Shown: piece by piece, positions 2,775 to 26,490 of the stretch
How positions within the stretch are numbered: position 1 is the first letter of the stretch
How the letters are laid out: each line of letters opens with the position of its first letter
Assembly (NCBI GenBank): GCA_964347475.1
Contig: CAYFYY010000015.1
Coordinates: forward strand, 877-64,876
DNA from: an uncultured Flavobacteriales bacterium
GTDB taxonomy: Bacteria; Pseudomonadota; Alphaproteobacteria; UBA8366; JADFVY01
Length of the DNA: 64,000 bases
Reading direction: 5' to 3'
Made by a program: the position numbers and the translations under genes
The notes under the pieces: model-generated
Told to the model about the DNA's origin: nothing
Seen by the model: the letters and a program-made list of their open reading frames with translations, nothing else
Databases searched by the model: none

Positions 2775-3256
2775 TGTTCGACGAGTTGCGAGAACTCTAC
2801 CAGGAAGTGATCCTCGATCACGGCAAGAGCCCGCGGAATTTCCGCGCCATCGAGGGCGCGCGTTTCCATGCCCATGGTCACAACCCGATGTGCGGCGACC
2901 AGTTGGAAGTGTTCGTCACCGCCGACGACGGTGGGCAAATTACCGATGCGAGCTTCGTCGGCAGGGGCTGCGCCATCTCGGTCGCCTCGGCCTCACTGAT
3001 GACCGAGATGCTACGCGGCAAGACGATCGACGAGGCGCGGCGCATGTTCGACGGGTTCCATGAGATGTGCACGACCGGCGGCGACGATCCCCTTGCCGGC
3101 CTGGCCGAAGAGGATGCGGACCGGCTGCAGGTGCTGTCCGGTGTGCGCGAGTTCCCGATGCGGGTGAAGTGCGCGACCCTGGCCTGGCATACGATGAATG
3201 CCGCGACCAGGGGCATAGACGAAGTTTCCACCGATGACGGGCTGGGAGCAGGATGA
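2771..3256 (+). CDS. sufU: SufU/NifU-N-type sulfur-transfer/scaffold protein
   Basis: 161 aa with NPMCGD, GRGCAIS and VKCATLAW motifs. Starts at GTG 2771 or ATG 2774, overlapping the sufS stop. Confidence 0.8.
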   Translation: MMFDELRELYQEVILDHGKSPRNFRAIEGARFHAHGHNPMCGDQLEVFVTADDGGQITDASFVGRGCAISVASASLMTEMLRGKTIDEARRMFDGFHEMCTTGGDDPLAGLAEEDADRLQVLSGVREFPMRVKCATLAWHTMNAATRGIDEVSTDDGLGAG

Positions 3257-3657
3257 TGACACAGCAGGCATCGACGATGCGCGATTTCATGCCGCTTTCG
3301 TCGCCGGCAGACGGCACGGCGCGCGCCGGTGCGCCGCTGGCGCCGGGTGCAACGGCCGCCGCTCGCGAGGCGGTGATCGAGGCGCTGCGGACCGTGCACG
3401 ACCCCGAGATTCCGGTGAACATCTACGATCTCGGGCTGATCTACGAGCTGGAGATCGCGGATGACGGCTCCGTGCGGATCGGCATGACGCTGACCGCGCC
3501 GGCCTGTCCGGTCGCCGGTGAGATGCCGCAGTGGGTGGCCGATTCGGTGGCCGCGGTCGACGGCGTCGGCGAGGTGGAAGTATCGATGGTCTGGGACCCG
3601 CCCTGGACGCCCGAGCGGATGTCCGACGATGCCAAGATGCTACTGGATATCGGCTGA
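3253..3657 (+). CDS. DUF59/SufT-like Fe-S assembly protein
   Basis: 134 aa with the DUF59 core VIEALRTVHDPEIPVNIYDLGLIYELEI...MTLTAPACPV. The start overlaps the sufU stop. Confidence 0.75.
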   Translation: MMTQQASTMRDFMPLSSPADGTARAGAPLAPGATAAAREAVIEALRTVHDPEIPVNIYDLGLIYELEIADDGSVRIGMTLTAPACPVAGEMPQWVADSVAAVDGVGEVEVSMVWDPPWTPERMSDDAKMLLDIG

Positions 3658-3713
3658 CCGCGTAACGACATAATGGATGGCCGGGTGTTGATACACCCGG
3701 GGAGTACGAGAGC

Positions 3714-4052
3714 ATGGAAAAACCCAAGGCGATGACCCTGACGGACGCGGCCGCGGCACGCGTCAAACACCTGATGGCGCAGACCGACAAGGCCGTCATC
3801 GGCGTGCGCGTCGGCGTGACAATGCAGGGTTGCTCGGGCATGAGCTACAAGATGGAATACGCCGAGGAGGAACGGCCGTTCGAAGAGGTCGTCGAGGACA
3901 AGGGCGTGAAGATCTTCATCGATCCCGCGGCGACGATGTTCCTGCTCGGTTCCGAGATGGACTGGGTTGAGGACAAGCTCGCCTCGCGGTTCGTCTTCAA
4001 CAATCCGAACGTGAAGGGGATGTGCGGCTGCGGCGAGTCGTTCCACGTTTGA
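3714..4052 (+). CDS. A-type Fe-S carrier (IscA/SufA/ErpA family)
   Basis: 112 aa with the C-x(n)-CGCGESF signature (GCSGMSY...MCGCGESFHV). Confidence 0.85.
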   Translation: MEKPKAMTLTDAAAARVKHLMAQTDKAVIGVRVGVTMQGCSGMSYKMEYAEEERPFEEVVEDKGVKIFIDPAATMFLLGSEMDWVEDKLASRFVFNNPNVKGMCGCGESFHV

Positions 4053-4124
4053 CCGCGGCGGCAATAACAACAGGTCCGGCCTGCGGGGGTCGCGGCAACT
4101 GAGTGGGCGGGAAGACCGAGGCAT

Positions 4125-4457
4125 ATGCCCAAGATGACGTTCATAGAACCGGACGGCACCCGCAGGGAGGTCGACGCCCCGCTGGGCCTGTCGATCATGG
4201 AGATCGCCCACAAGCACGACATCGACATCGAGGGCGCTTGCGGCGGCTCGCTGTCCTGCTCGACCTGCCATGTCATCGTCGACCCCGCCTGGTTCGGCAA
4301 GCTGCCGGAGCCCGACGAGGAGGAGGAGGACATGCTCGACCTCGCCTTCGGACTGACCCGCACCTCGCGTCTCTGCTGTCAGCTGATCATGACCGAGGAT
4401 CTGGACGGCATTACCGTCACGCTTCCGGAAGAGACGCATAATTTCCTGTTGGATTGA
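4125..4457 (+). CDS. [2Fe-2S] ferredoxin, adrenodoxin/Fdx type
   Basis: 110 aa with the cysteine pattern [12 protein letters not shown] ... CCQ, typical of vertebrate-type 2Fe-2S ferredoxins. Confidence 0.85.
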
Positions 4458-4581
4458 TCCGAGACGACACGGCTCTTTTTGTGGCGACGGGGGTCGTGGC
4501 GCCTGACGCTGTGTTCCGGATCAGCCATGCCGCGCGTCGGCGAACGCCGGCGAATGGAACGTTGACGATAGCTTTGGTCGG

Positions 4582-7117: not shown

Positions 7118-8191
7118 GTGCCAGCGGTGTCGATTGTTGTAACGGGTGGCGCGGGTTTTATCGGCTCTGCCGTGGTTCGGCAACTGATCGCGGAAACCGA
7201 GGAGACCGTTATCAACGTCGACGCCCTTACCTATGCGGGGAACCTCGATTCGCTGGGTCCGGCGCGCGAAGACGACCGCCATGTCTTCGAGCGGGTGGAC
7301 ATCCGCGACGCGGCGGCGGTGACGCGCGTGTTCGCCCGGCACAGACCACGTGCCGTAATGCACCTGGCTGCCGAATCGCATGTCGACCGTTCGATCGACG
7401 GGCCGGCGGACTTCATACAGACCAATATCGTCGGCACGTATACGCTCCTCGAAGCTGCGCGCACCTATATCGAGACGCTTGATGAGGCGGAGCGCCGGAT
7501 GTTCCGGTTCCATCATGTATCGACCGACGAGGTGTACGGGACGCTGGGTGCCGACGGGCGGTTTACCGAGGAAACGGCGTACCGGCCGAACTCTCCCTAT
7601 TCGGCCAGCAAGGCATCGTCGGACCATCTCGTGCGGGCCTGGGGCGAAACCTTCGGATTGCCGATCGTCATCACCAACTGTTCGAACAACTATGGCCCCT
7701 ATCAGTTCCCCGAAAAGCTGATTCCGGTGCTGATCCTCAAGGCCCTGAACGGCGAGCAGCTGCCGATCTACGGTAAGGGAGAAAACGTGCGCGACTGGCT
7801 TTATGTCGAGGATCACGCCGCGGCACTTCGCCTGGTTCTGGAGCGGGGTGAGCTTGGCGAGACTTACAACATCGGCGGCTCGGCCGAACGCCGGAATATC
7901 GACGTTGCGCGCGCGGTATGTGCGATCCTGGATGAGCTGCTACCGGCGTCGCCGCACCGCCCGCATGAGAACCTCATTACCTTCGTTGCCGATCGGCCGG
8001 GGCACGATCTGCGCTATGCCATCGACAGTTCGAAAATCGAAAGGGAACTGGGATGGACCCCCGTCGAGACATTCGAGACCGGCCTGAGGCGTACCGTCGC
8101 CTGGTATCTCGACAACAGTGAGTGGTGGGAGCGAATTCTTTCCGGCGCATACCGGGTCGAGCGCCTGGGGCTAGGGCGGGGGCGTGCGTGA
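7118..8191 (+). CDS. rfbB: dTDP-glucose 4,6-dehydratase
   Basis: [10 protein letters not shown] Rossmann motif, [10 protein letters not shown] catalytic YxxxK, and full-length RmlB-like architecture. An alternative GTG start at 7127 sits better behind AGGAAAGG. Confidence 0.9.
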
Positions 8192-9084
8192 TGGGTGCGC
8201 AGGCGGTGAAGAAGGGCATCATCCTCGCGGGCGGATCGGGCACGCGCCTGTATCCGATCACCACGTCGGTCAGCAAGCAGCTGCTTCCCGTCTACGACAA
8301 GCCGATGATCTATTATCCGTTGTCAGTGCTGCTGCTGGCCGGTATCCGACAGATCCTGGTGATCACGACGCCGGACGACTCAACGGCGTTCCAGCGGCTG
8401 CTGGGAGACGGATCCCAATGGGGAATAGCGGTTACCTATGCCGTTCAGCCCCGGCCCGAGGGCCTCGCCCAGGCATTCATCATCGGCCGCGATTTTGTCG
8501 GATCAGACCCTGTGTGCCTTATCCTCGGCGACAACATTTTCTACGGCCACGGATTGGCAGGACAGTTGCAGTCCGCCGCGTCCCGAGGCAACGGCGCCAC
8601 GGTTTTCGCCTACTGGGTGCGTGATCCGGAACGATACGGCGTGGTATCGTTCGACAAGGGTGGCCGCGCCATCGATATCGAAGAAAAACCTGCTCAACCG
8701 AAGTCAAATTTTGCGGTGACCGGACTTTATTTCTACGATGCCGACGTCGTGGATATCGCTGCTGGTCTCAAACCGTCGGCACGCGGCGAACTGGAGATCA
8801 GTGATGTCAACCTTGCCTATCTTAAACGCGGTGACTTGCGCGTAGAGATGCTCGGCCGCGGTGCCGCTTGGCTGGACACCGGCACCCACGAGTCGTTGCT
8901 GCAGGCCGCCCAGTTCGTCGAAGTCGTGGAAGCGCGCCAGGGCCTGAAGATCTCGTGTGTCGAGGAGATCGCGTGGCGGATGGGCTTCATCGACAGCAGT
9001 GCCCTGCGTGCCTTGGCGGAACCGCTGGCGAAGAACGGCTATGGGCAATATCTTCTCGATCTCTTGAAACGGCACACCGGATGA
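8191..9084 (+). CDS. rfbA: Glucose-1-phosphate thymidylyltransferase
   Basis: ATG at 8191 overlaps the rfbB stop (GTGATG). [17 protein letters not shown] signature; 297 aa. Confidence 0.9.
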
Positions 9085-10602: not shown

Positions 10603-11961
10603 TCACGGGTCCATCTTCAAGAACGGGAGTTCGTCGTACGCGAAACGCATGGCGCTTGGAACCACCGCGACGTAATCGGTGCCATCCTTTTGCCGCCGTC
10701 CGGGAGTCCGGTATTGCCAGACCACTTCTTTGTCCCGGGTCACTTCGATGATACGTCCGTTTTCCGACTCGACGATCAGGATGTTGTCGTTTGGCAGCCG
10801 TTGTTGCACGCCATAACCCAGCGTAAACAGCGGGTCCTCCGGACGGCCTGCGTACAGCCATTCGGTCCGCTGCGTCACCGGGTCGAACTCGATGACACGC
10901 GATCCCAGTTCGGGCCCGATATGGCCCAGGTTGTCGAAGATGAGCATGTTGCCGTTCGGCAGGATTTCCGGCTCATGCTGGCGGAACCACATGCCCCCCA
11001 TGGACCAGACGATCTTCTCCTGTGACGGATCGAGCACGGCGATCATGTTCATCTCACGCATCGAGATGAGAAGCTGGCCTGGACGTGTGAAGGGCAGGCG
11101 ATCCGCTTGACGTTGGTCGATGAGATTTATCGTGTTGGTATGGGTATAATCGCCCAGGAGCGAATCGAAGTGCATGGCCGTCAGGCTGGGCCAGTGCACC
11201 GAATTGTAGAACGCGTCGATGATATAGATCTTCTTCCTGATTTCTCCCGTATCCGAGATGACGGCGACGTAGTCCATGATGTAAGGCGTGTGCAATCGCG
11301 GCAGGCCAAGATAGCTCTTGGTGCTGATCTCGTGGCCGAGCGCGTAAATCGTCCCATCCTCGTTGACCGCAAGGTCGTGATGCAGGGACTCGCTTATCCG
11401 CCAGATCAGGTGCGAATTCCTGTCCAGCTTGACCAGACCCATTCCGTACGGCGTTACGTCCGGCGATTCGACGACGATTATGATATCGCCGTTCGGAAAG
11501 ACGACGGCTCTGCGCGGATATACTGTCGGCGCGTTTTCGGAACCTTGCCCTTGCTGCGCGGTGGTCCAGTCGATCTCGCCCGGCAACGTCCAGCGATGCG
11601 CCATTTCCCCTTCCATGGTCACAAGATCGACGGCCGATTCGTCGCTTCGCAGCACCATGGTCAGGCCATTGAACGCCCGGGTCCGATCATAGCGGCTGAT
11701 GACCGGATCATCGTCGGAAATCGGCGTAACGACAGGTCGCCACAGATTTCCGTACGGCCCGGCATCGGACAGCGGTACGACCAGAGTGCTCAGGACGGCC
11801 GCATCCCGCAGCACGTGGTTGAATGGGCTGTTGCCTCGCAGAGCCACGACGGCACCGGCAACAACCAGGAGAAAGACAAAGGCGATTGCTGCGAGTGCCA
11901 TGGGCACCGCTGCTCGGACGGAAAGGAACGATCTAAGGCGCTGCGGCAAATTCTTCTGCAT
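10603..11961 (-). CDS. Arylsulfotransferase (ASST)-like beta-propeller protein with N-terminal membrane anchor
   Basis: 452 aa. The N-terminal TM is AVPMALAAIAFVFLLVVAGAVVAL. GDYTHTNTINLI and repeated propeller-like blocks resemble the ASST family. Assignment rests on motif memory only. Confidence 0.6.
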   Translation of the reverse strand: MQKNLPQRLRSFLSVRAAVPMALAAIAFVFLLVVAGAVVALRGNSPFNHVLRDAAVLSTLVVPLSDAGPYGNLWRPVVTPISDDDPVISRYDRTRAFNGLTMVLRSDESAVDLVTMEGEMAHRWTLPGEIDWTTAQQGQGSENAPTVYPRRAVVFPNGDIIIVVESPDVTPYGMGLVKLDRNSHLIWRISESLHHDLAVNEDGTIYALGHEISTKSYLGLPRLHTPYIMDYVAVISDTGEIRKKIYIIDAFYNSVHWPSLTAMHFDSLLGDYTHTNTINLIDQRQADRLPFTRPGQLLISMREMNMIAVLDPSQEKIVWSMGGMWFRQHEPEILPNGNMLIFDNLGHIGPELGSRVIEFDPVTQRTEWLYAGRPEDPLFTLGYGVQQRLPNDNILIVESENGRIIEVTRDKEVVWQYRTPGRRQKDGTDYVAVVPSAMRFAYDELPFLKMDP

Positions 11962-12063
11962 TCGATCAGTTGGGGCAGATAGGTGTGGATCCCGTGCAGA
12001 TGGATTCAGAACCGGAGGTTAATCTCTGGTGTGGCGCGTCGATGGATCTACGGACCGGCGGCA

Positions 12064-13407
12064 TTACCGGACTGCGCGCCAACCGTCGATTCGCCAAACG
12101 CTCGGAATTGCGCGAAATTGCGGCCAGTAACGTGAGAGGAAACCAGCAGCCAGGATGAGGAATGCCCAGCCATAGAGAGACGCGAAGAAAAAGTGACTTG
12201 CCCGGGAGTCCTCGGCGCCGATGACCTCCATCAACCGGTACAGCAGCCCCACCAGCGCGAAATGAAACAGTACCGGCATGGCGAGCACAGCGCCTCCCAG
12301 CTTCATCGCCGAGTTCCACCTGAATGAGAGAAAAATCGGCAAGAGGAACAACACATAATGAATCCAGCCGATCGGCGACGCCAGGACTGTCGCCACCAGC
12401 GCGACGGCGCTGGCATCTTCACTGCGCGGTTGGAAACGCCAGGCCCACAATGCGATACCGGCAAGCATCAGGAAGCCGAGAGCAACTCCGATCCATAAGA
12501 CGCCCGCGCGCGCCGACATTGCGGCGAGCGACAAATTGGTTCCAAATAGAATTCGTCCCGGATCGCTTGTCATCCAGGCGTCTAGCCACTGTACATAGAC
12601 CCCCGGTCCGAAGATGACGGCCGGCAGGATGCTCAGGATTGCGGCACCTGCAAGCGCCGCCAGAGCGGTGCGCCTGTATCCGGCAATGAACAGGACCACC
12701 GGCCAGACCAGGAAATTGGGTTTCATGGCGACAAGAATGCCCATCATGAGGCCGGCCGATACGGGGCGCTCCCGCTCCAGCAGAATCCAGGCGGCAACCG
12801 AACAGACCAGCAGCAGGATGTATATTTGACCAAGATCCAGCGTGTCCCAGAAGCCCGGGAAGCAGGCGGCCCACAAGATCATCCATTTGCTCGGGCTCTC
12901 CTGGCGCGTCGAAGACAGCACGATCATCGTGGCGACGAACAGTGACAGGGACAGCCACCAGGTAATCTGGAAGGCCAGTCCAGGTTCGATCATCGACAGT
13001 GGCGCGAAAACCAGGAGGGAGACCGGCGGGTTCAGGTTCGGATTAAACCCGTGGAAAAAGCGCGTCTCGACAAAGAAGCTGAGCTGGTACTCGGCATATG
13101 GATTCAAACCGCGACGCGCCGCAGCGCCGGATTCGTAAAACGTACCGAAATCACGGAGCTGCTTGCGAACCTCGGGCAGTTCGCGCTGCAGCGACGACAG
13201 ATCTTCGTTGAAGGTATCGATATGCGCGGTTAGGACACGAAGACTGTCCTCGGGCTTGGTAACGAAGTATTGGAAGACGATAAAGAACACCAGGAGTAAG
13301 GCGGCTGTTGCACGGGCAGCCGGATGGTTCCAGAAACGAACGGGAATTGACTCCGGGGGTGCCGATTCCGGTGTTCGTTCCGGGTCGAGGGCCTCTGCAT
13401 CGGACAT
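12064..13407 (-). CDS. Polytopic membrane glycosyltransferase-like protein (DUF2029/GT87-like, GT-C fold), paralog 1
   Basis: 447 aa with more than 8 hydrophobic segments. The N-terminal loop QLRDFGTFYESGAAARRGLNPY and the blocks MKPNFLVWPVVLF and SPIGWIHYVLFLLP are shared with 15486..16808. Confidence 0.6.
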   Translation of the reverse strand: MSDAEALDPERTPESAPPESIPVRFWNHPAARATAALLLVFFIVFQYFVTKPEDSLRVLTAHIDTFNEDLSSLQRELPEVRKQLRDFGTFYESGAAARRGLNPYAEYQLSFFVETRFFHGFNPNLNPPVSLLVFAPLSMIEPGLAFQITWWLSLSLFVATMIVLSSTRQESPSKWMILWAACFPGFWDTLDLGQIYILLLVCSVAAWILLERERPVSAGLMMGILVAMKPNFLVWPVVLFIAGYRRTALAALAGAAILSILPAVIFGPGVYVQWLDAWMTSDPGRILFGTNLSLAAMSARAGVLWIGVALGFLMLAGIALWAWRFQPRSEDASAVALVATVLASPIGWIHYVLFLLPIFLSFRWNSAMKLGGAVLAMPVLFHFALVGLLYRLMEVIGAEDSRASHFFFASLYGWAFLILAAGFLSRYWPQFRAIPSVWRIDGWRAVR

Positions 13408-13776
13408 GGATCGGTGGTTCCAGATTCTGACGCGGCGATGCCATCGGCAACACCGAACAACGTGCCTATCGGCGATCTGACGGCCTCCTTCTCACTGCGG
13501 CCGGCAGCCGCTGCGGACGAGAAATACCGCTCCCAACCGCACATATCTCCAACAGCACAATTGTTAGAAGTTCCGTATTAACAATCAGTTAATTAATATC
13601 AAGGAAAGAAAACCAGACAGATATTTGATGTAAAGGCGGGAATATTTCACGTCCCGACTGAATACATATGGCCATTGGTCGCACATGGCACATCGAGGGC
13701 CCAAATCGGTCGTGACATCGGATAAACAGGCGGCAATCGCAAGACAACCTGGAAACGACACTCCTCGTGGAGCGCC

Positions 13777-15381
13777 TCAGTCCCGCTGACGAATGGCGTA
13801 AAGCGTGAAGTACGAGCCTTCGTGCAACGCCGTCAACCGGCCGGGAAGCGGATTTTCAGCGACTCCGAAATGGGTCAGAAGCACGTAATCGAATCGGCTT
13901 GGCCAATCTGTCCAGAAGTCCTGCATTGCAATGAAACCGGCAGGTGGCGTGCCCGCATTTCCATTGCCTGCCGATCGCACCAGCAACGCAACGTCGATCG
14001 GGGCACCAAATGCCGTGTCGATGTCCAGCCGTGCCGCTGCGGCGCGAACGGGCTGCTTGGTCGGATCGGTAAAGAGGGTTGGAACGAAGGCGCCGCGGTC
14101 GATGACTGCAAGCGCTGACAGATGCCAGTACGCGTAGTCGAATCGTGAGTCGCCGGCCACAACCGGCGCGTTGCGCCGCTGAACGGGCAGGATCGCGGCG
14201 CCGCGCTCGATCACCCGTGCGGCCGTTCGGAACTCCGCGAAATCGCGGTCCATGCGGCGCCATTCGAGTGCGACGTCGAATAGGCGGGCGCCGAGCAGCA
14301 CGGCACCGGCAATCAGGACCGCAATGGCGATGCGGGGGCTGACGGTCCGCGGGCGCAGTCCGGCCACGAGAAGCAGCGCCACGACAGTCGGCAGGCGCAG
14401 ATCGGCATACCAGATACTGCCCCAAGTGCCTTGAACCCAGAACGGCATCGCCAGTGCGCCCGCGGTCAGCGCCGCCAGCGGCAGACGGAGCGGGTACGCC
14501 AGGCGAAGCCGGCCGGTGGCGAAGCCGGCAAGCGGCACTGCCGCCGCGAACAGGAACACCGCGGCGTCGACAGGTTTCAGATAGGCCAGGGTCGGTGACC
14601 ATACGGCGCGAACCTTCGCGAGGAACGGACCGTACAGAAAGCCGTGCTCGGTGGCGTCCGGCATTGTGCCGAGAACGAGCAACGCTGCGGGCAGAAACGG
14701 CCAGGCGACGACAAAGGCCTGCCGGGCCGCGATGCGCCGGTCGCGGCGCCCTGTGGCGAGCAGGCGGGGAAACTCGTATCCGGCAACGCAGACGCCGTAC
14801 ACCGCCAGCGCGAACAAATGGGCGAAAAACAGCCCGACCAGTGCTGCCGGGAACAGGGCCCAGCGGATCCAGGGCGGCCCGCGTTCGCTGGCAATCCAGC
14901 CGGCGAACAGGGCCAGTGCGAGGCCGATGGCGAACAGGTAGTTGAGGAATCCCATGATCAGGAGGTGGTTGTACAGCAGCATGAAGACCGCCGTCGGCCA
15001 AAGCCCGATGTCGCCGTGCAGAACCCGGTGCAGGGCAAGCGTGCCTCCGACCAGTGCCAGCATTGTCAACACGACGAATACCCGACCTGCGATCTGAAGG
15101 GGCAAAACAGCCGCGAGCGGTTGCATGACGAGGTCCATCGCAAGATTCGGCATGGCGCCCCAGGCAACCTGGTAATTCTCGGCAAGCGCGGGGTCGGAAT
15201 CGATGGCAGTAAGGACGTGCACGCGCGCGAGATGATTCGGGTAGTCGACGAGGCCCGGAATATCGACGAAGGCCAGCGGGAGGAGGACGGCCAGTCCCAG
15301 CACGACATAGACGAGACCGCGCCGACGGGCGCCGATAACAAGGTCCGATGGCAGTACCGTGGCGGCGGCCGTGCCGTTCAT
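13777..15381 (-). CDS. Polytopic membrane protein with C-terminal soluble domain (function unknown, possibly GT-C-like)
   Basis: Internal ATG at 15381 of ORF 13777..15582 gives MNGTAAATVLPSDL... Many TM segments are followed by a non-hydrophobic tail of about 190 aa. No catalytic motif recognised. Confidence 0.5.
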   Translation of the reverse strand: MNGTAAATVLPSDLVIGARRRGLVYVVLGLAVLLPLAFVDIPGLVDYPNHLARVHVLTAIDSDPALAENYQVAWGAMPNLAMDLVMQPLAAVLPLQIAGRVFVVLTMLALVGGTLALHRVLHGDIGLWPTAVFMLLYNHLLIMGFLNYLFAIGLALALFAGWIASERGPPWIRWALFPAALVGLFFAHLFALAVYGVCVAGYEFPRLLATGRRDRRIAARQAFVVAWPFLPAALLVLGTMPDATEHGFLYGPFLAKVRAVWSPTLAYLKPVDAAVFLFAAAVPLAGFATGRLRLAYPLRLPLAALTAGALAMPFWVQGTWGSIWYADLRLPTVVALLLVAGLRPRTVSPRIAIAVLIAGAVLLGARLFDVALEWRRMDRDFAEFRTAARVIERGAAILPVQRRNAPVVAGDSRFDYAYWHLSALAVIDRGAFVPTLFTDPTKQPVRAAAARLDIDTAFGAPIDVALLVRSAGNGNAGTPPAGFIAMQDFWTDWPSRFDYVLLTHFGVAENPLPGRLTALHEGSYFTLYAIRQRD

Positions 15382-15485
15382 GGCGCCGCTCCTTGCGCAG
15401 GTGTTGCAGGGATTCGCGGTGCCGGGCGGACCCCCGCTGCCTGGCCCTTGTGCCGGATCGTGCCCATGCCTCCGGCCGCCGACCT

Positions 15486-16808
15486 TCAGCGTGAGTCCGC
15501 CGGCGGTACGGCGGCGAACGAGGACGTGTTCGGCGCGGCCAGCTGGCGGGCGACCGGCACGGCCACGAGCAACAGGCCCCATATGTATACCGAGCCGAGC
15601 GTCACCTCGACCCAGGTCGGGCCCTCGAACAGGGAATTAGCGATGATCCGCGGCGTTGCCAGCAACACGGCACCGGCAATCATGGCCCGCGACCAGCGGA
15701 TCGAGAACAGCGGCGGCAGCAGGAACAAGACGTAATGGATCCACGCGATGGGCGAGGCGAGAAGAGCCACGAACATGGCGATGAGGCCGGCGTCGTGCGC
15801 ATCCGGCCGCCGCCGCCAGGCCCACCATGCGGTGGCCAGCAGCAGGGCCAGCGCGGCGCCCCTGCCGAGCCACGGGATGTCCAGGCGGCCGGCGTAGGCG
15901 ATGACCGACATGTTGGTGACCCACAGCGCGCGACCCGGATCGTCGTTGGCCAGCACGGCGTACCATTGCGGATAGACCTGCCAACCGAAGAGCAGGATCG
16001 GCGCCGCCGACAGTGCCGCGAAGGCGAGCAACGCCGGGACCGCGGTTCGCCGGTGCCCGGCGAGCAGCAGGACCACCGGCCAGACCAGGAAATTCGGTTT
16101 GAACGCGGCGACCAGCCCGATCAGCACGCCGGCGGCGGCGAAGCGGCCGCGATCCTGGAGCACCCAGGCGCCGAGCGCTGCGACCATAAGTGGAACGTAA
16201 ATCTGGCCGAGGAACAGCGTGCCCCAGAAGCCCGGCAACGAGAGCGCCCACAGGACGATCCAGCGGCCGCCCTGCGGCTGATAGGTGCGCGCCAGATAGG
16301 CAAGGGCGGCGAGGAAGACAACCAGTGAACTCCACCACAGCAGTCGGAACGTGACGGCCGGGTCGAGCAGCGAGACCGGCGCCATCAGAAGCAGTGAGGC
16401 CGGCGGGTTGAGGTTCGGATTGGCGCCGCTGAAGTGCTTGATCTCGACACGGTAGGACAGGTCGTGGATCTCGTATGGATTGCGCCCTTCCAGCGCCGCA
16501 CGGCCCGACTCGTAGAAGCTGCCGAAATCCCGCAGGCTCTCGTCCGGAAACGAAATCATGAACTGGTACAGGATGTTCAGGACGATGACGAAGGTCGCCA
16601 CCGCCGCCACGAGTCCCGCAATACTGATGCCGGCCCGACGATCGGGCGGCGCGGCAGCAGGGGTCCGCTGAATTTCAAGGGCGCCGGGCCTGGGTCGGTG
16701 CATCGGACGTTCAGTCGCTGTTACGATGGGGTCGCGCCGATCGGTCCGCCTGCAGGCCGCGTCCGACGAGTTGGGGCGGCAAACCGACCGGGAAATCCGG
16801 TCCGTCAA
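15486..16808 (-). CDS. Polytopic membrane glycosyltransferase-like protein (DUF2029/GT87-like), paralog 2
   Basis: 440 aa with SLRDFGSFYESGRAALEGRNPY, FKPNFLVWPVVLLLAGHRR and SPIAWIHYVLFLLPP matching paralog 1. An alternative start at the ATG at 16703 is possible. Confidence 0.6.
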   Translation of the reverse strand: MTDRISRSVCRPNSSDAACRRTDRRDPIVTATERPMHRPRPGALEIQRTPAAAPPDRRAGISIAGLVAAVATFVIVLNILYQFMISFPDESLRDFGSFYESGRAALEGRNPYEIHDLSYRVEIKHFSGANPNLNPPASLLLMAPVSLLDPAVTFRLLWWSSLVVFLAALAYLARTYQPQGGRWIVLWALSLPGFWGTLFLGQIYVPLMVAALGAWVLQDRGRFAAAGVLIGLVAAFKPNFLVWPVVLLLAGHRRTAVPALLAFAALSAAPILLFGWQVYPQWYAVLANDDPGRALWVTNMSVIAYAGRLDIPWLGRGAALALLLATAWWAWRRRPDAHDAGLIAMFVALLASPIAWIHYVLFLLPPLFSIRWSRAMIAGAVLLATPRIIANSLFEGPTWVEVTLGSVYIWGLLLVAVPVARQLAAPNTSSFAAVPPADSR

Positions 16809-16887: not shown

Positions 16888-18300
16888 GTGGCAACATTCG
16901 CTTCGAAACCGCCCGACCGGCTACCCCGCGGCCTTGCCCCCGAACGGTTCCTGCGCGGCCGCTTCGGCGACTGGGTGGCGCGGCCCTGGCTGGACCGCGC
17001 GGCCCTCGGCAGCCTGTCCGGGTATTTCCCGTTGAGCCGGCTGTGGGCGGCGGCGTCAGTGGCCCAGGGCGACCGCGACCGGTTTCGCGATGAGGTGCCG
17101 CTGGCCCGCGCCGCCATGCCCGACGACTGGTTGCTGGAGCCCATGCTGGCGGGCGTGCACAGGGCCGTCCGGCGCCACCGGCGGGTCGACCAGGCATGGC
17201 GCCGACGGTTCTTCTCGCCGGTCGCTTCGCCGTCGGCTCGCGTGCTCGTCGAGACGGAACTGGAGCGCCGTGCCGCCGCGCGCGTCTGGATGGCGTCGCG
17301 CGGCCTGCTCATGCCGTTGCTGGCGAAGGCGAAGCCGGCGCCGGTCCGTTGGTCGATCCCGGCCGTGGGCGATCTCGAAGGCCAGCTGGGCACCGCCCTC
17401 GCCGATCCCGCTTCGTATTACGCTGTGCCGGACCCGCTGCCGGAGATCGAGCGATCGCATGCCGTGCCGGGGCCGGACGGCATGGAATGCTGGTTGCGCT
17501 TTGCCTCGCCGGGGCGGGCAACCGGCGACACAGCTTGGGCCAAGATATACGAACCCGAGACGTTGCCGGCGCGGGCGCCGACCCTGATCCTGTGCCACGG
17601 CCTTGCGGTCGAGACCGAGATGTGGGGCACCGGAATCGGCACGCCGCATGCACTGATCCGCTCGGGCGTCCGGCTGGTTGCGCCGGAGGCGCCCTGGCAC
17701 AACCGACGTATGGCCGCCGGCCGCTGGGGCGGCGAGCCGCTGCTGGCGACGGCGCCGCGCGGCGCGCCGGACCTGTTCCAGGCGGCACTCGGCGAGATTG
17801 CGACGCTGATCGGCTGGGCGCGCGGGCAGGGCAGTCCCGTGGTGGCGCTCGGCGGCACCAGCCTCGGCGCGCTGACAAGCCAGCTGGCGGCGGTCCAGGC
17901 CCGATACTGGCCGGAGCCGCTGCGGCCCGATCTGCTTTACCTCGTGGCGACCGGCGGCAGCGTGCAGCAAGTTGCGGTGGGCAGCGAGTTGACGGACGTG
18001 TTCGGGCTGGGCGACCTCTTGGCGGCCGCCGGCTGGGACGATGCGGCACTGGCCAGGTTGGAGCCGCTGACGGATCCGCTGGGCGCGCCGGTCATGCCGG
18101 CGGAGCGCATCGTCATGGTGCTCGGCCGGGCCGACAACGTGACCCGTTTCGACAAGGGCCGCGAACTCGCCGCACGCTGGCAGGTGCCGGATAACAACCT
18201 GTTCATCCGCGAGCAGGGGCATTTCTCGATCCCCCTGGGCCTGCTGCACGATGACGCGCCGCTGCGGCGTCTGCGGGCCTTGATGGGCAAGACGGTCTGA
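16888..18300 (+). CDS. Alpha/beta-hydrolase fold protein with long N-terminal extension
   Basis: 470 aa (GTG start). LILCHGL, a nucleophile elbow GGTSLGA, and C-terminal D...H candidates. Confidence 0.55.
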   Translation: MATFASKPPDRLPRGLAPERFLRGRFGDWVARPWLDRAALGSLSGYFPLSRLWAAASVAQGDRDRFRDEVPLARAAMPDDWLLEPMLAGVHRAVRRHRRVDQAWRRRFFSPVASPSARVLVETELERRAAARVWMASRGLLMPLLAKAKPAPVRWSIPAVGDLEGQLGTALADPASYYAVPDPLPEIERSHAVPGPDGMECWLRFASPGRATGDTAWAKIYEPETLPARAPTLILCHGLAVETEMWGTGIGTPHALIRSGVRLVAPEAPWHNRRMAAGRWGGEPLLATAPRGAPDLFQAALGEIATLIGWARGQGSPVVALGGTSLGALTSQLAAVQARYWPEPLRPDLLYLVATGGSVQQVAVGSELTDVFGLGDLLAAAGWDDAALARLEPLTDPLGAPVMPAERIVMVLGRADNVTRFDKGRELAARWQVPDNNLFIREQGHFSIPLGLLHDDAPLRRLRALMGKTV

Positions 18301-18351: not shown

Positions 18352-19389
18352 TCAGGCGTGCGTCCAGGTGTGGCCCGAGCGCAACAACTCGTTGATGTCG
18401 CCGGTGATCCGGTCGGGTCGACGGCCCCCGCTCAGCGCTGCGACCTGTTGATCGACCAGTGTCTCGTAGCTGTCGGCGGGCGAGCAATAGAGGACGCCGA
18501 GTGCAACGGGCAGATCCGGCGGCTCCATCGCCGCCAGCATCCCCGCCAGCGTCGGGTTCGTCTCGTCGTGGACCAGCAGGTCGGCTTCCGCGGCGCCGTT
18601 CCGGCCGAGCGCGACCGCCTCCAGGGTCAGTGTCCGCGGATCGAGGCGGAGTCCCTTGTCCCGGTTCGCGCCGAAGATCAGCGGCTCGCCGTGCATCAGG
18701 TGGACCTGACGGTCGTCGGCGACCTCGCGGTCGGTGAACGCGCCGAACACATTGTCGTTGTAAACGATGCAGTTCTGCAGGATCTCGACGAAACCGGCAC
18801 CCTTGAAATCATGGGCGCGTCGCAGAATCCCGGGCAGGAGCTTCTGCTGCGTGTCGACGGCGCGGGCCACGAAACGCGCGCCGGCGCCGAGCGCGAAACG
18901 GATCGCCGACACCGGGGTGTCGAGGGAGCCGCCCGGCGTCGACGGGCTGCGCGTCCCGACCCGGCTGGTCGGCGAATACTGGCCCTTCGTCAGGCCATAG
19001 ATCTCGTTGTTGAACAACAGCATCGTCAGGTCCACGTTGCGGCGCAGCGCGTGCATCAGGTGGTTGCCGCCGATCGACAGGAAGTCGCCGTCGCCGCCGA
19101 TCACCCAGACGTCGAGCTCGGGGTTGGCCAGCTTGATGCCGGTCGCGATCGCAGGCGCGCGCCCGTGGATCGTATGGAAGCCATAGGTGTCCATATAGTA
19201 GGGCAGCCGCGCGGCGCAGCCGATGCCGGACACGAAGACGGTTTCGTGGCGCTTCAGCTGCAGCTCGGCGCAGGTCTTCTGCACCGCCTTGATGATGGCG
19301 TAGTCGCCGCAGCCGGGGCACCAGCGCACCTCCTGGTCCGACGCATAGTCCTTGGGCTGCAGGTTCTCGGGACTTTTCTGGTCGCTCAT
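18352..19389 (-). CDS. korB: 2-oxoglutarate:ferredoxin oxidoreductase, beta subunit (TPP-binding)
   Basis: 345 aa with RWCPGCGDYAI and GGDGD TPP motifs. Directly downstream of the alpha subunit. Confidence 0.85.
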   Translation of the reverse strand: MSDQKSPENLQPKDYASDQEVRWCPGCGDYAIIKAVQKTCAELQLKRHETVFVSGIGCAARLPYYMDTYGFHTIHGRAPAIATGIKLANPELDVWVIGGDGDFLSIGGNHLMHALRRNVDLTMLLFNNEIYGLTKGQYSPTSRVGTRSPSTPGGSLDTPVSAIRFALGAGARFVARAVDTQQKLLPGILRRAHDFKGAGFVEILQNCIVYNDNVFGAFTDREVADDRQVHLMHGEPLIFGANRDKGLRLDPRTLTLEAVALGRNGAAEADLLVHDETNPTLAGMLAAMEPPDLPVALGVLYCSPADSYETLVDQQVAALSGGRRPDRITGDINELLRSGHTWTHA

Positions 19390-19393
19390 AGGC

Positions 19394-21256
<1,863 letters not shown>

Positions 21257-21502
21257 CTCTTGTCGCCGCCTTCGGGTGCGCCCGCCGCAGCGTTCCGCAC
21301 CGTATGCTCTTTTCCAATTCTCCGGCCCGCCCAGCCGGCGCCGAGGTGCATAAAAACACCTCTGACAGTGTGGGAATTGAGTCTTTACATTTCGCAAGCG
21401 ATAATTAGCGGTCCGCGGCCGGTTCGCAACCCCTTTTCTCGAAAAATGATCTTACGGCGGGCGGCGTCAATCGGCGCGCCGGCCCGCCAGCGCCGGTGCC
21501 GA

Positions 21503-21537
21503 GCAAACAGGAAAACGGCGGGCTGATTCCCGCCGTT
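21503..21537 (-). terminator. Rho-independent terminator candidate after the cytochrome/Rap1a-like operon
   Basis: On the minus strand: AACGGCGGG-aatcag-CCCGCCGTT followed by TTTCCTGTTTGC. Lies 27 bp downstream of the stop at 21564. Confidence 0.5.
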
Positions 21538-21563: not shown

Positions 21564-21944
21564 TTATCGGCACATGAAATTGGCCTTCAGGGTGCTGCGC
21601 ACACCCTCGGCGGCCTTGATCTTGTTGCGGTCGCTGAAATGCTCATGCGCCCATTTCATGAACGCCCAGCGCACCTCGTCGTCGCGGTTCTGGTCCGGCA
21701 GGCAGACCTTGTCCGCCTTGGCCGCCCCGCTCTGTATGTAGGCGTCCGTGTAGCCCTTGATGTATTGCTCGCACTCCATCTCCGAGGTTGCGCCCTCGCG
21801 CGAGTCGTTGTCGCCGACGATACACGGGCCGAGCAATTCGCCGACCGTATAGGCCGAGATGTCGGTGGCCGTGGCGGCGGAGGCGAGGAGGAGGGCGGCG
21901 GCCAGCGCCGCCCCGATGCCGCCCGCAAGTCGTGTCGTCATCAT
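21564..21944 (-). CDS. Small periplasmic Rap1a/Tai4-like domain protein
   Basis: ATG at 21944 preceded by GGAGGA. Signal peptide MMTTRLAGGIGAALAAALLLASAATA. The pattern C...ECEQYIKGYTDAY...VCLP...W...H...FMC matches the Rap1a-type four-Cys fold as I recall it. Confidence 0.55.
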   Translation of the reverse strand: MMTTRLAGGIGAALAAALLLASAATATDISAYTVGELLGPCIVGDNDSREGATSEMECEQYIKGYTDAYIQSGAAKADKVCLPDQNRDDEVRWAFMKWAHEHFSDRNKIKAAEGVRSTLKANFMCR

Positions 21945-21963
21945 CGTTCGATCCTCCATTGCA

Positions 21964-24279
21964 CTATTGCTTGGACAGGGCCTGGACGGCACGGTTCATG
22001 ACATCCCGGTGCTGCTCGTTGGTGACCCAGCCCGGCGAATTGACCTTGGCCCAGAATGCCGGGTCCGCCATGTTCTGGTGGCAGCCCATGCACAGCCCCG
22101 TGCGCTCCATCTTCTCGCGCATCTGCTGCGGCAGCGGGCCGGTCAGCGGCCAGTGCGAGCCGATGCTGACGAGCTGTTTGCCGTCGCGGGTGACGATCTG
22201 CGACAAATCGTGGTCGAGGCTCGGGATCGCCGGCGACTGCACCTGGGTCTGGCGCGGGATGGTCTGTCCCTGGGCGGTCTCGAGATCAACCACGAAACCC
22301 TTGTCGTAGCCGTTGAGGAACCGCCCGTCCTCGATGCCGTAGCCCAGCGTCTTCGGGTTGTCGTGGCAGCTCTCGCAGGTGCGGGCCTGGCGGCCGGCCG
22401 TGTGCGGCTGCACCGCGGCATGGTCGAGGCCCTTGCCCTCCGGTGTCTTCCAGGTCTCGTTATGGACCACAGTCTTGCCGTCCTTGTCGATGACCGTGGT
22501 GATGACCTGGCAGCCCGGCATCAGCGGGCTGACGCGCCCCTCGCCGTTGATGCCGAGGATCGGCGTCTCCCAGCGCAAGTAGGACCGGGTCTCCGACACC
22601 TTGCCCGGGCCGGTGAGCCCGTTGGTGCCGAGCGCGTTGTCTGCCGTCAGGCCGTCTTCGCCGCGCGAGTTGGCGTTGAGCAGCCAGTCGACGTCGGTCT
22701 TGCCCTCCGAGTAGTCGACGGTGATGTGGCAGCCATAGCATTGCGGTGCCCAGTCGGCATGGCAGGCATAGCACTCCATCGAGTCCATGTGCTGGGCGAT
22801 GCTGCCCATGGCGACACGGCTGTTGATATTCTTCCAGGCATTGTCGGCAGCCAGCTGTTTGAGCACAGGGACCTCGAATTCGAGACCGGCGGCCGAATGC
22901 AGGATCACCTTGTTGCCCCTCTTGACCACGTTGCCGAAGGGGTTTCCGCGGGCGGTCAGCAAATAGCCGTCCTCGGCCTCATACTGCGTGGCGAACGCCA
23001 TGTAGTCCGGGACGTCTTGCGCCAAGCCGCGCGGCGTTTGGGCGATGGCCTGCTGAAACTCCTCGCCGTAGCCGAGCGGCAGCTCCCACGGGTACTGGGC
23101 GACCGAGCCGTGGCAGTCGGCGCACTCGATCTCGACCTGCGCCAGCGTCGTGCCGGGCAGGTTGCCATCGCCGTGCATGTCGATCGAGGTATGGCAGTCC
23201 TGGCACAGCATGCCGCCTTCCGGGTTGCCCGGCCGGCTTTCCTGCGAATGGTGCAGGTCGTCCTTGATGTACAGGTAATTCTTGGTGTGCAGGGCCGGCT
23301 GCTTGCCGCCGCTCGAGTCGTAGGGACTGCCGTACGGGAACTCCATGATGCCCTGGTAGCTGACGCCGATCCGCTTGCCCCGGTTGTGGCAGGAATTGCA
23401 GCTCTCCGTCGGGATGCCGCTGTAGCTGACGTCGCCCACGGTGACTTGCGACTTTTGCGTCGCCTGCATGCGGTGGACCAGCAGCTTGCCCGGCAGCTCC
23501 TTGTCGATCGTCGGGTCGCCGCCCTCGTACTTGCCTTCGTTGGAGTACGGCACGTGACATGCCGAGCAGCCGGTGCCGCGGTAGTCGCCGCGCTTCTCAC
23601 GCCCGGTCACGCCGACATGGCAGCGCTGGCACTGCTGGCGCGAATAGGTGACTCCGGCCATGTTCGGGTGGTCCGGGATCAGGTTCACGTCGACCTCGGG
23701 CGGTTGTTTCATCTCTGTGGGGAACTGGTCCGGATGGGCCGCCGCCATCGCGGTCATGTAGGCCTTGTAGGCGTCGGTGCCGATCGCCGGCGTCTGGCCG
23801 TCATCGTCGGTGATGTTGTAGTTGCCCCACACCGACTTGTAGTCGTCCTGCAACCCCCACGACCAGAAATTGCCCTGCAACTTGCCGGCCTCCGTATTCA
23901 TCAGGGATTTCTGCAGCCGCTCGGCGTAGCCGTCATGACACTGCCCGCAGGTGTTCTTGGCGATCCAGACGCTGCCCGGATCGGGGTAGAACCGCTGCGG
24001 GCCACCGGCCGCCCGCAGGTCCCGGGGGCTACCGCTGTGTGCCGCCTCCGTGGTCGTCGCGGCGGGGTTGCCGCCATGGCAGACGACGCAACCGGCCGGA
24101 TCCCCAACATCGGCGCCCATCGCCTCGATGGTGTCCATCATCGGGCCGTCGCTGAACTTCTCGATGCCCTGGTGGCACGCAAGGCAACCCGATTGCTGGG
24201 CCGGCGCGCCCGTCGCTGTGAACAATGACAGCGCCACGACGACGGGAAGTATCAGGCTCGGACTGACGAGATATCGCAT
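21964..24279 (-). CDS. Periplasmic multiheme cytochrome c (12 CxxCH motifs)
   Basis: 771 aa with a signal peptide. CxxCH motifs: CLACH, CVVCH, CGQCH, CQRCH, CSACH, CNSCH, CQDCH, CADCH, CYACH, CYGCH, CESCH, CMGCH. Confidence 0.85.
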   Translation of the reverse strand: MRYLVSPSLILPVVVALSLFTATGAPAQQSGCLACHQGIEKFSDGPMMDTIEAMGADVGDPAGCVVCHGGNPAATTTEAAHSGSPRDLRAAGGPQRFYPDPGSVWIAKNTCGQCHDGYAERLQKSLMNTEAGKLQGNFWSWGLQDDYKSVWGNYNITDDDGQTPAIGTDAYKAYMTAMAAAHPDQFPTEMKQPPEVDVNLIPDHPNMAGVTYSRQQCQRCHVGVTGREKRGDYRGTGCSACHVPYSNEGKYEGGDPTIDKELPGKLLVHRMQATQKSQVTVGDVSYSGIPTESCNSCHNRGKRIGVSYQGIMEFPYGSPYDSSGGKQPALHTKNYLYIKDDLHHSQESRPGNPEGGMLCQDCHTSIDMHGDGNLPGTTLAQVEIECADCHGSVAQYPWELPLGYGEEFQQAIAQTPRGLAQDVPDYMAFATQYEAEDGYLLTARGNPFGNVVKRGNKVILHSAAGLEFEVPVLKQLAADNAWKNINSRVAMGSIAQHMDSMECYACHADWAPQCYGCHITVDYSEGKTDVDWLLNANSRGEDGLTADNALGTNGLTGPGKVSETRSYLRWETPILGINGEGRVSPLMPGCQVITTVIDKDGKTVVHNETWKTPEGKGLDHAAVQPHTAGRQARTCESCHDNPKTLGYGIEDGRFLNGYDKGFVVDLETAQGQTIPRQTQVQSPAIPSLDHDLSQIVTRDGKQLVSIGSHWPLTGPLPQQMREKMERTGLCMGCHQNMADPAFWAKVNSPGWVTNEQHRDVMNRAVQALSKQ

Positions 24280-24473
24280 CGGTAGCCCCCTGTTACCGGT
24301 GAGAGATGAGACGTGTGATATCCGTGATATTCAACCTTCACACCCGCCAGTGGCGATTGCAAATGAATTCCAGTCCAAATTGCTTCTTTTCGGCGTGGCT
24401 TAGCCAAAAATGGGTATCCGGCCGGGGACCACGGGCATTGTGTTGCGGCCGCGTGGGCCTATATATCGGGCCC

Positions 24474-25951: not shown

Positions 25952-26215
25952 TCAGTTGTCGCCGGGCCCCTGGTCGGGCGTGCCGTCATCGTCGCCGGCA
26001 TCCGCAGCGTCGTCGTCGTTGCCGCCGCCCTGATCCGGCGTGCCGTCATCGTCGGCGGCATCCGGAGCGTCGTCGGCGCCGTTCTTGGCGTACGCGGACT
26101 TCTCGACGAGCATACCGGCGTCCAGGGTCACCGGCGCCGCAACCGCGATCGCAAAGACACCGAGTGCCAGCGCTGCAATCACCGCCTTGAGTAAATCTGT
26201 CGTCCTGTTCGTCAT
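25952..26215 (-). CDS. Small secreted/anchored acidic repeat protein
   Basis: ATG at 26215 gives MTNRTTDLLKAVIAALALGVFAIAVAAP, then an Asp-rich tail with DAADDDGTPDQG twice. The underlying DNA is a tandem repeat. Confidence 0.45.
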   Translation of the reverse strand: MTNRTTDLLKAVIAALALGVFAIAVAAPVTLDAGMLVEKSAYAKNGADDAPDAADDDGTPDQGGGNDDDAADAGDDDGTPDQGPGDN

Positions 26216-26490
26216 GGTTTTACCCTCTCTATTGCACGTTCCCGGCATAACCCGGCTCTGAAATCCCGGGACTGCCGACTTGGCTTCAAGCAAAGCCGGG
26301 CTGGATCATGCCCCGTTACAGGGCGGCAGCGTAATGGGCGGAAGACGGAAGTGGTCGATGTTTGAAGTCCCATTGGAACCCGACCCTGGGCGGGGGCCGA
26401 AAGTGCGATTCGCATCGGACCTTGGTCGGACTTGTCATGCACGCTCCGCCGTCGGTACTCTTGCGCATTAACGATTTGGGATTAAATGCA

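Follow-up and report, generated by a model that had tools for sequence, protein, structure and literature searches.

The two genes described here lie on the reverse strand (-) of a 64,000-nucleotide (nt) stretch of DNA from an uncultured alphaproteobacterium (contig CAYFYY010000015.1, positions 877 to 64,876); this whole stretch is called the window. The first gene (21964..24279) was identified as an open reading frame (ORF) and by motif count, and encodes a secreted cytochrome c of 771 amino acids (aa) with twelve heme-binding sites, placed in the ExtM superfamily. The second (21564..21944) encodes a secreted protein of 126 aa with a predicted Rap1a (Tai4a) fold, recognised by Pfam family PF18602, by AlphaFold2 with Foldseek, and by synteny. 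The stop codon TAG of the cytochrome gene occupies 21966-21964 and the small gene starts with ATG at 21944, which leaves a gap of 19 bp; within it, 7 nt 5' of the ATG, is a GGAGGA ribosome-binding site (21952..21957, -). A terminator-like hairpin (21514..21537, -) of nine base pairs, seven of them G-C, begins 27 nt past the stop codon of the small gene, at the end of the two-gene unit and before korA. The scan returned three terminator-like sites against a shuffle mean of 2.3, so that a match to the pattern is by itself weak evidence. The unit is flanked by korA and korB, for the subunits of a POR/TPP-type 2-oxoacid:ferredoxin oxidoreductase, and by mnmA. An earlier account of this DNA, the sequence-only reading, had listed the 771-aa product with its signal peptide and twelve spread CxxCH sites, some of them closely paired, a secreted 126-aa protein 19 bp downstream, a terminator after it, and korAB and mnmA as neighbours. 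The present analysis agrees with it on these points. The locus is read as a bicistronic operon; the spacing in the window fits co-transcription, and the same arrangement was found in 75 of 80 species-level loci. Judged by their strong conservation in other genomes, both genes are more than chance ORFs.

Relatives of the cytochrome were found in at least 263 species in data with one genome per species, and all species-level counts given here refer to the best 80 of these (68-97% identity). The small gene was detected by tblastn in 76 of the 80 loci, immediately downstream of the cytochrome gene and on the same strand in 75 of them, with a median gap of about 20 nt. At one locus (L072) it lies upstream of the cytochrome gene. 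Downstream of the cytochrome gene, L072 carries two tandem paralogous genes for secreted proteins of about 100 aa with conserved cysteines (VTCEDI...CE(K/Q)YP; 7191-8290). The carriers include marine Alphaproteobacteria (Roseibium, Tropicimonas, Aliiruegeria, Shimia, Seohaeicola, Oricola, Filomicrobium, Kiloniellales, Rhodospirillales and Thalassospiraceae) and Gammaproteobacteria (Woeseia, Acidiferrobacter, Competibacteraceae, Chromatiales and Beggiatoa-type Thiotrichaceae). Rhodobacteraceae are among the hosts, and several carriers are in culture, among them Roseibium aggregatum SY-2-12, Tropicimonas isoalkanivorans DSM 19548, Shimia abyssi DSM 100673 and Aliiruegeria spp. The closest relative, with 97% identity, is encoded by an uncultured alphaproteobacterium of sand sediment and likewise has korAB and mnmA as neighbours. 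The other neighbours of the pair in the window are common only to the three closest relatives.

Among the more distant relatives examined the pairing was not seen. No Rap1a-like ORF was found near relatives of 40-61% identity, whose contexts are unrelated, and the neighbourhoods of five such proteins (P0147, P0148, P0150, P0152 and P0162) share no partner and contain no Rap1a gene. A Rap1a-like gene is also absent from the true ExtM locus, where the ExtJ-like small proteins are not Rap1a-like. The pairing thus appears, from these comparisons, to be confined to one highly conserved proteobacterial clade and not to extend to the rest of the superfamily. A 911-aa protein (P0022) was considered as a fusion of the cytochrome and the small protein and was rejected as a frameshifted read-through, with an Arg/Gly-rich out-of-frame tail over the position of the Rap1a-like gene. 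At the locus of the 61%-identical P0147 (L081, 4097-14697), the cytochrome is extended at its C-terminus by a coiled-coil-like stretch with a hydrophobic anchor at the end, and its gene lies upstream of genes for a tetratricopeptide repeat protein, a COX1-family oxidase and an alternative-complex-III-like set (multiheme cytochrome, Fe-S protein and NrfD).

The small protein has a signal peptide, MMTTRLAGGIGAALAAALLLASAATA, and a mature part of 100 aa (11.2 kDa, isoelectric point 5.1). The mature part contains four cysteines (C41, C58, C81 and C125), all invariant among orthologues. The Pfam model Rap1a (PF18602) matches it over positions 1-90 of 90 with an E-value of 5.8e-13 and 49.6 bits, against a cut-off of 27.7, and its orthologues are likewise annotated with PF18602. 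An AlphaFold2 model built with 24 orthologues is all-helical, with a predicted local distance difference test score (pLDDT) of about 93 for the mature part and 82-96 for the individual blocks. When this model was compared with the PDB by Foldseek, the top seven matches were Rap1a (4bi8, 3zfi) and Agrobacterium Tai4 (6ijf, 6ije), with TM scores of 0.68-0.73 and probabilities of 0.99-1.0; the next match had a probability of 0.15. The proposal that the small protein resembles Rap1a/Tai4 is therefore borne out by Pfam and by fold comparison, and on the strength of the model the protein is assigned the five-helix Rap1a fold. Identity to the crystallised Rap1a/Tai4 proteins is 12-21%, and sequence and profile searches of the PDB gave no match, so that the link to Rap1a consists of the Pfam hidden Markov model (HMM) and the fold comparison. 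Since direct searches miss the crystallised proteins, the small protein is regarded as a remote Rap1a subfamily.

Rap1a itself is a five-helix dimer in which a fold-defining Cys78-Cys122 disulfide joins the alpha2-alpha3 loop and the C-terminus, and it neutralises the amidase Ssp1 by a steric block in a 2:2 complex (PMC3852654). In the small protein C81 lies in the loop before the helix at 87-101 and C125 at the C-terminus, in places that correspond, by position in the alignment and the model, to Cys78 and Cys122 of Rap1a, so that a like disulfide may be present. The secreted five-helix fold (TM 0.70-0.73 to 3zfi, 4bi8, 6ije and 6ijf) is shared with the Rap1a/Tai4a proteins, and tight protein binding would be expected by analogy. 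In contrast to them, the small protein has an additional invariant cysteine pair (C41/C58), an invariant charged surface (DNDSR.G, ECEQY, NRxDEVRWAF), no nearby Tae4/Ssp1 or type VI secretion system (T6SS) gene in the loci scanned, and a multiheme cytochrome as its constant neighbour. Of about 100 mature residues, 33 columns are invariant when 24 orthologues are aligned, including the polar set DNDSR.G, ECEQY and NRxDEVRWAF..W. None of them is a His or a Met, for which reason the small protein is not itself a heme protein.

Membership in the Rap1a family, the Rap1a fold and the position of the disulfide would also be expected of an orphan type VI amidase immunity protein (Tai4a), directed against Tae4-type effectors of competitors and functionally unlinked to the cytochrome. 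Orphan immunity genes are common. The profile of the orthologue alignment does not hit Rap1a or Tai4 sequences directly, so that sequence gives no reading of specificity. This explanation is nevertheless considered very unlikely. It does not account for the synteny with the cytochrome gene in 76 of the 80 species, which belong to two proteobacterial classes and have no other neighbour in constant place, nor for the tight gap with its own ribosome-binding site inside one transcription unit. All recovered members of the Rap1a subfamily that are on long contigs share their contig with the cytochrome. Among the Pfam-annotated genes within 10 kb at the loci L088 (Roseibium) and L089 (a gammaproteobacterium) no Tae4/Ssp1 or T6SS family was found, and the same holds for the genes scanned at 10.6-28.6 kb of the window, three of which have no Pfam match. 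An orphan immunity gene that merely hitch-hikes would hardly produce this pattern, which argues for a functional and probably physical partnership of the cytochrome and the small protein. Literature searches gave no publication that links Rap1a, Tai4 or PF18602 with cytochromes and none relevant to this cytochrome family or to dodecaheme cytochromes in Alphaproteobacteria. The pairing can be called undescribed within these searches, as the sequence-only reading had supposed, and comparison of the neighbourhoods of homologues has added that it is kept.

The cytochrome contains exactly twelve CxxCH motifs, at residues 32, 64, 111, 217, 238, 294, 359, 386, 503, 514, 635 and 730. Motifs 9 and 10 (22726..22773, -) are adjacent, as CYACH and CYGCH separated by ADWAPQ, and read CYACHADWAPQCYGCH at residues 503-518. 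Of 25 cysteines in total, C590 is the only one outside the heme motifs (MPGCQV; codon at 22510..22512, -), and it may be an axial ligand of heme 10 or a reactive residue there. The N-terminus, MRYLVSPSLILPVVVALSLFTATGAPA, resembles a signal peptide; from sequence and hydrophobicity the signal peptide (24199..24279, -) comprises residues 1-27 and ends in ...TATGAPA. It has no lipobox, and among 19-residue hydrophobicity windows only the one at the N-terminus is strongly hydrophobic. The calculated mass of the mature protein is about 81 kDa for the apoprotein and about 88 kDa once the hemes are included, and its isoelectric point is 5.5.

Pfam places an MtrC/MtrF domain II/IV at residues 213-393 (hemes 4-8; E-value 1.8e-14) and a Cytochrome_C7 region, c7-like and triheme, at residues 28-115. 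The best NCBIfam model is ExtM (NF040943), with an E-value of 2.3e-73 and 247.5 bits against a cut-off of 800 bits; a true ExtM used as control (P0283) reached 826 bits. The cytochrome aligns with P0283 from end to end at 25% identity (E-value 4e-64). All twelve CxxCH sites and the PGCQ cysteine (Cys590) are conserved between the two, and the cytochrome of the window is about 150 residues longer than ExtM through four insertions. ExtM (GSU2935), encoded in the Geobacter extHIJKLMNOPQS cluster, is a cytochrome of 68 kDa with 12 hemes (PMC5877670). The statement that size and heme count fit no nameable class is thus not upheld: with all twelve sites aligned to those of P0283, the protein has the heme count and architecture of a named family, in which it stands apart as a subfamily, and it is a remote homologue of ExtM. 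It does not fall cleanly into a characterised family, and its score is below the ExtM equivalog cut-off. By sequence it belongs to a distinct, larger subfamily within the ExtM superfamily, and the members of this subfamily keep about 75% identity. No model in NCBIfam names this subfamily, and the source databases call its members hypothetical or cytochrome C.

Structural comparison added little for the cytochrome. Sequence and profile searches of the PDB returned local heme-motif matches only, for example NrfA with an E-value of 2.7e-6 over 70 residues, and no solved structure related beyond single heme motifs. The AlphaFold2 model computed with 53 homologues has a pLDDT of 42, from an alignment too shallow in diversity, and a Foldseek search with that model gave zero matches. 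Of the checks suggested earlier, the HMMs place the cytochrome near ExtM.

ExtM and the cytochrome of the window have in common that they are secreted, that they are without a solved structure and that they carry twelve heme sites and a lone PGCQ cysteine. They differ, apart from the 25% identity, the 247 bits against a cut-off of 800 and the extra length of about 150 residues, in their neighbours: beside the cytochrome gene of the window there is no decaheme ExtN, Rieske protein ExtO, cytochrome b ExtP, porin-like ExtI, rhodanese ExtH or TusA/DsrE. At one locus (L090, 1266-5631) TusA and three small genes, one of which has a faint DsrE match, come before a true ExtM gene. The three small genes are read as DsrE/F/H-like; an ExtN-like cytochrome and a Rieske protein follow ExtM, and a TauE-family exporter is nearby. 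This TusA/DsrE sulfur-relay context finds no mention in the available text of the ExtM papers. The Geobacter ext cluster holds a rhodanese and a selenoenzyme needed for S0 respiration (PMC5877670; bioRxiv 10.1101/2025.11.18.688581), and ExtKL (MccSep), the neighbour of ExtM, is needed for respiration of elemental sulfur (bioRxiv 10.1101/2025.11.18.688581).

The MtrC/MtrF domain match, together with a weak match to the OmcA/MtrC model TIGR03507 (31 bits against a cut-off of 209), could be taken to indicate an MtrC/OmcA-like terminal reductase on the cell surface, which would transfer electrons to extracellular minerals or electrodes. Resemblance to MtrC, OmcA and MtrF extends to the pentaheme domain at residues 213-393 and to heme-poor, beta-rich stretches between the heme clusters, and ExtM is encoded in Geobacter in a cluster with a porin-like protein (PMC5877670). 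Unlike the surface reductases, however, the cytochrome has twelve hemes and not ten, no lipoprotein signal and no MtrAB partner, and it is probably periplasmic. No MtrA/MtrB-like or porin-cytochrome genes were found in the window or in the Pfam-annotated loci of relatives, and the partner is a soluble protein of periplasmic type. The surface function is accordingly rated as highly improbable, the least favoured of the explanations discussed here.

A word-indexed search returned 2730 homologues of the cytochrome, of which the best 120 are all 770-800 aa long and 71-97% identical. In an exhaustive search of representatives at 50% identity, 1349 clusters matched, 241 of them below 1e-30, and the close family amounts to about one cluster. 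Several hundred columns are invariant in an alignment of 53 sequences. At the 42 loci with ccmF, the cytochromes differ by a pairwise distance that averages 0.20; the corresponding averages are 0.30 for CcmF, 0.45 for the small protein and 0.54 for the divergently encoded regulator described below. These distances suggest a constraint on the cytochrome that is unusually tight for a multiheme cytochrome and tighter than that on the neighbouring CcmF.

One heme site stands out among the twelve. In 20 relatives at 30-75% identity motifs 1-9 and 11 never vary, and several lineages have other residues in place of motif 10 (C514-x-x-C517-H518), the only motif lost repeatedly in distant relatives. 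Cys590 is invariant in 53 close homologues. Among the 78 representatives that cover both positions, motif 10 and Cys590 are both present in 49 and both absent in 15, with motif 10 only in nine and Cys590 only in five. Over 513 testable alignment columns Cys590 has the strongest association with motif 10 (phi 0.56), and no His column tracks the motif as it does. In the close family, eleven invariant non-motif His and Cys590 provide twelve possible sixth ligands for twelve hemes. Because motif 10 and Cys590 co-vary, Cys590 may lie at heme 10, and it is a plausible proposal, held with somewhat less than even confidence, that it serves as the sixth ligand of this heme, which would then be a reactive, low-potential site wired by the other eleven. 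In the thiosulfate enzymes TsdA and SoxA, catalysis takes place at hemes with Cys/His ligation (PMC4423706, PMC9562282). These enzymes serve as a working analogy only: in the cytochrome, too, one conserved non-motif Cys goes with one heme, and its hosts are rich in sulfur oxidisers. They differ in showing no sequence homology and in being di- or tri-heme proteins, and the Cys ligation in the cytochrome is deduced from co-variation.

The same ligand count is compatible with a cytochrome that has no catalytic site. All twelve motifs are canonical CxxCH, and the eleven His and Cys590 suffice as twelve axial ligands, so that all hemes could be bis-ligated and the protein could act as a periplasmic electron shuttle or capacitor between membrane quinol oxidoreductases and terminal reductases or oxidases under fluctuating oxygen. 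The Rap1a-like protein would then help to assemble or stabilise the cytochrome, or act as a docking adaptor. The resemblance to the MtrC pentaheme and c7 triheme regions points to electron-transfer modules, ccmFHI and FNR/fix regulon genes are frequently adjacent, and the hosts come from permeable sediments with fluctuating oxygen. A protein with about 64 residues per heme and large non-heme insertions would, however, be poor value as a wire. The constraint tighter than that on CcmF and the invariant lone Cys tied to one heme are more enzyme-like, and the role of a chaperone does not need a secreted partner with 33 invariant columns in about 100 residues, many of them charged. A non-catalytic function is on balance unlikely, at perhaps one chance in a few.

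In 53 of the 80 loci a gene for a regulator of about 268 aa lies directly upstream of the cytochrome gene, always divergent from it. The product belongs to the Crp/Fnr family and has a conserved N-terminal CxxCxxxxC cluster and two further conserved cysteines, a pattern that is the signature of FNR-type iron-sulfur oxygen sensors. Clustering of flanking ORFs placed ccmF-ccmH-ccmI near the pair in about 44 loci. In Roseibium (L088, 6975-9781) the last 4 nt of the regulator gene coincide with the start of ccmF, and ccmH and ccmI come next, as also in L016, L033, L037 and others; the overlap suggests that the oxygen-sensor gene and the heme-lyase genes share a transcript, which would run divergently to the gene of the 12-heme cytochrome. 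In L012 (Rhodospirillales and Thalassospiraceae, with L062) the pair lies between ccmABC and ccm(D)EFGHI (L012, 4997-15734; L062, 10462-13574), and L012 includes the regulator; ccmA, B, C, E and G were identified there by reading of the sequences and not by Pfam. The gammaproteobacterial pair at L089 is found amid fixG, fixH, POR alpha/beta, rubrerythrin, hemN, crp/fnr, fixS, fixI and a FixLJ-like system. The observation in the sequence-only reading that no maturation gene or partner is adjacent therefore stands for the window and does not hold for most relatives, which have ccmF/H/I and the FNR-type regulator.

The FNR box TTGAT-N4-ATCAA was found with at most one mismatch in 33 of 74 upstream regions, against 0.7 expected, and with at most two mismatches in 54 of 74, against 6.2 expected. 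In the relatives it is located 160-360 nt before the first heme codon, between the cytochrome gene and the divergent regulator gene. Because of this enrichment of the FNR box and the divergent FNR-type regulator, the cytochrome family is very probably induced by oxygen limitation. The FNR box, the divergent FNR-type gene and the fixGHIS/hemN neighbours of the relatives recall the microaerobic FNR/FixK sets (ccoNOQP-ccoGHIS, hemN). The pair differs in that it is not a known member of such a regulon, and in that the lineage of the window is without box and regulator. At L089 a POR alpha/beta pair lies about 5 kb from the cytochrome pair (2008-4575), together with rubrerythrin, hemN and fixGHIS, and in the window a 2-oxoacid:ferredoxin oxidoreductase alpha/beta pair (18352-21397, -) lies beside the cytochrome operon, as it does in L005 (5-2509). 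The presence of POR pairs near the cytochrome in two unrelated lineages may reflect a shared low-oxygen regulon.

The interpretation favoured here, with confidence divided about equally for and against, is that of a soluble periplasmic 12-heme cytochrome c with a recruited, disulfide-stabilised protein of Rap1a/Tai4a fold as its dedicated binding partner. In most carriers the module would be made when oxygen falls, which is likely for the family and less so for the window. The cytochrome would be an enzyme in which eleven hemes relay electrons to or from the Cys-linked heme 10, and the Rap1a-fold protein would be a dedicated subunit whose tight surface binding covers, shapes or bridges a site of the cytochrome. 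By analogy, it is somewhat more likely than not that it binds the cytochrome as Rap1a binds Ssp1, tightly and in such a way that one site is covered or shaped; it may do so as a dimer that bridges two cytochromes. The substrate would be an inorganic sulfur species or a related oxyanion. The sulfur-relay context of ExtM, the Geobacter data and the host range (Beggiatoa-type bacteria, Acidiferrobacter, Woeseia, Chromatiales and Rhodobacteraceae) make this the best lead; that the substrate is in fact thiosulfate or tetrathionate, polysulfide, sulfite, selenite or similar is a tentative suggestion, with the chances clearly against it. The complete combination, a Cys-ligated heme site capped or tuned by an endogenous immunity-fold protein, switched on by FNR upon loss of oxygen and acting on sulfur-type substrates in marine sediment bacteria, is improbable as a whole.

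Several observations weigh against parts of this interpretation. No crp/fnr or ccmF homologue was found within the 64-kb window, and no FNR box with up to two mismatches is present upstream of its cytochrome gene. Low-oxygen control in the window is thus an extrapolation, for which the adjacent oxygen-sensitive korAB is the sole local hint. The upstream region of the operon (24280..24367, -) is without a canonical FNR box. It reads TTCATTTGCAATCG at 24354-24367, at most a half-site-like TTCAT; at the equivalent place the relatives L001-L003 have TTGAT and then TTGCAATCG-like sequence. It also contains ATATCAC-GG-ATATCAC (24315-24330, -), a perfect direct repeat located 36-51 nt before the start codon, which is partly conserved in the closest relatives L001 and L002 and could be the binding site of a non-FNR regulator in the lineage of the window. 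No sulfur-metabolism genes were found beside the pair in any proteobacterial locus examined, and no electron donor or acceptor of the cytochrome was identified. Shared ancestry confounds the co-variation of Cys590 and motif 10, and the cytochrome model of pLDDT 42 does not show where Cys590 lies with respect to heme 10. Fusions of the cytochrome and the small protein were not found among the homologues. The mirror-tree comparison was uninformative, as the distances of the cytochrome, the small protein, FNR and CcmF all correlate (0.43-0.80).

Four close homologues, moreover, have no adjacent Rap1a gene: those at three low-GC Beggiatoa-type loci (L073, L074 and L076, 7980-10298) and at L067. 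In the three Beggiatoa-type cytochromes three nearly invariant His are replaced (H204N, H620M and H690W), and heme motif 3 of L076 is CGQSGCH (CX4CH) in place of CGQCH. Residues that mark the cytochromes without a Rap1a neighbour were considered as a possible interface and rejected, since 14 positions follow the Beggiatoa lineage and L067 differs at one only.

Other genes of the window were also recorded. A 113-aa ORF (25952-26293, -) has a hydrophobic N-terminal segment and an Asp/Gly-rich C-terminus with the near-repeat DDDGTPDQG occurring twice, and has no Pfam match. The region 10603-16808 (-) contains envelope-type genes, namely an arylsulfotransferase-like gene, two paralogous GT87 glycosyltransferase genes and a 601-aa ORF with no Pfam match. 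A 470-aa ORF (16888-18300, +) with a strong coding signal, also with no Pfam match, is kept only in L001 and L002 (84-92%).

Multiheme cytochromes drive much of the anaerobic cycling of sulfur, nitrogen and metals, and most large families of them are without a known reaction. The present family occurs in abundant sediment groups (Rhodobacteraceae, Woeseia, Kiloniellales and Beggiatoa-type bacteria), is tightly constrained, belongs in most relatives with the genes of oxygen limitation, and offers a testable target for a missing low-oxygen reaction. It also links the ExtM of Geobacter to a much wider superfamily with a common core of twelve hemes and one Cys. The cytochrome alone is a new subfamily of a known but uncharacterised superfamily; what appears to be new is its conserved pairing with an immunity-fold protein under FNR control. 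If this is correct, it would be the first case found of a Rap1a/Tai4a fold serving a partner other than a peptidoglycan amidase, and would bear on the origin and re-use of immunity-protein folds. Should the small protein indeed cap a heme site, steric control in the style of effector and immunity protein would have moved from interbacterial warfare into the periplasmic redox metabolism of the cell itself.

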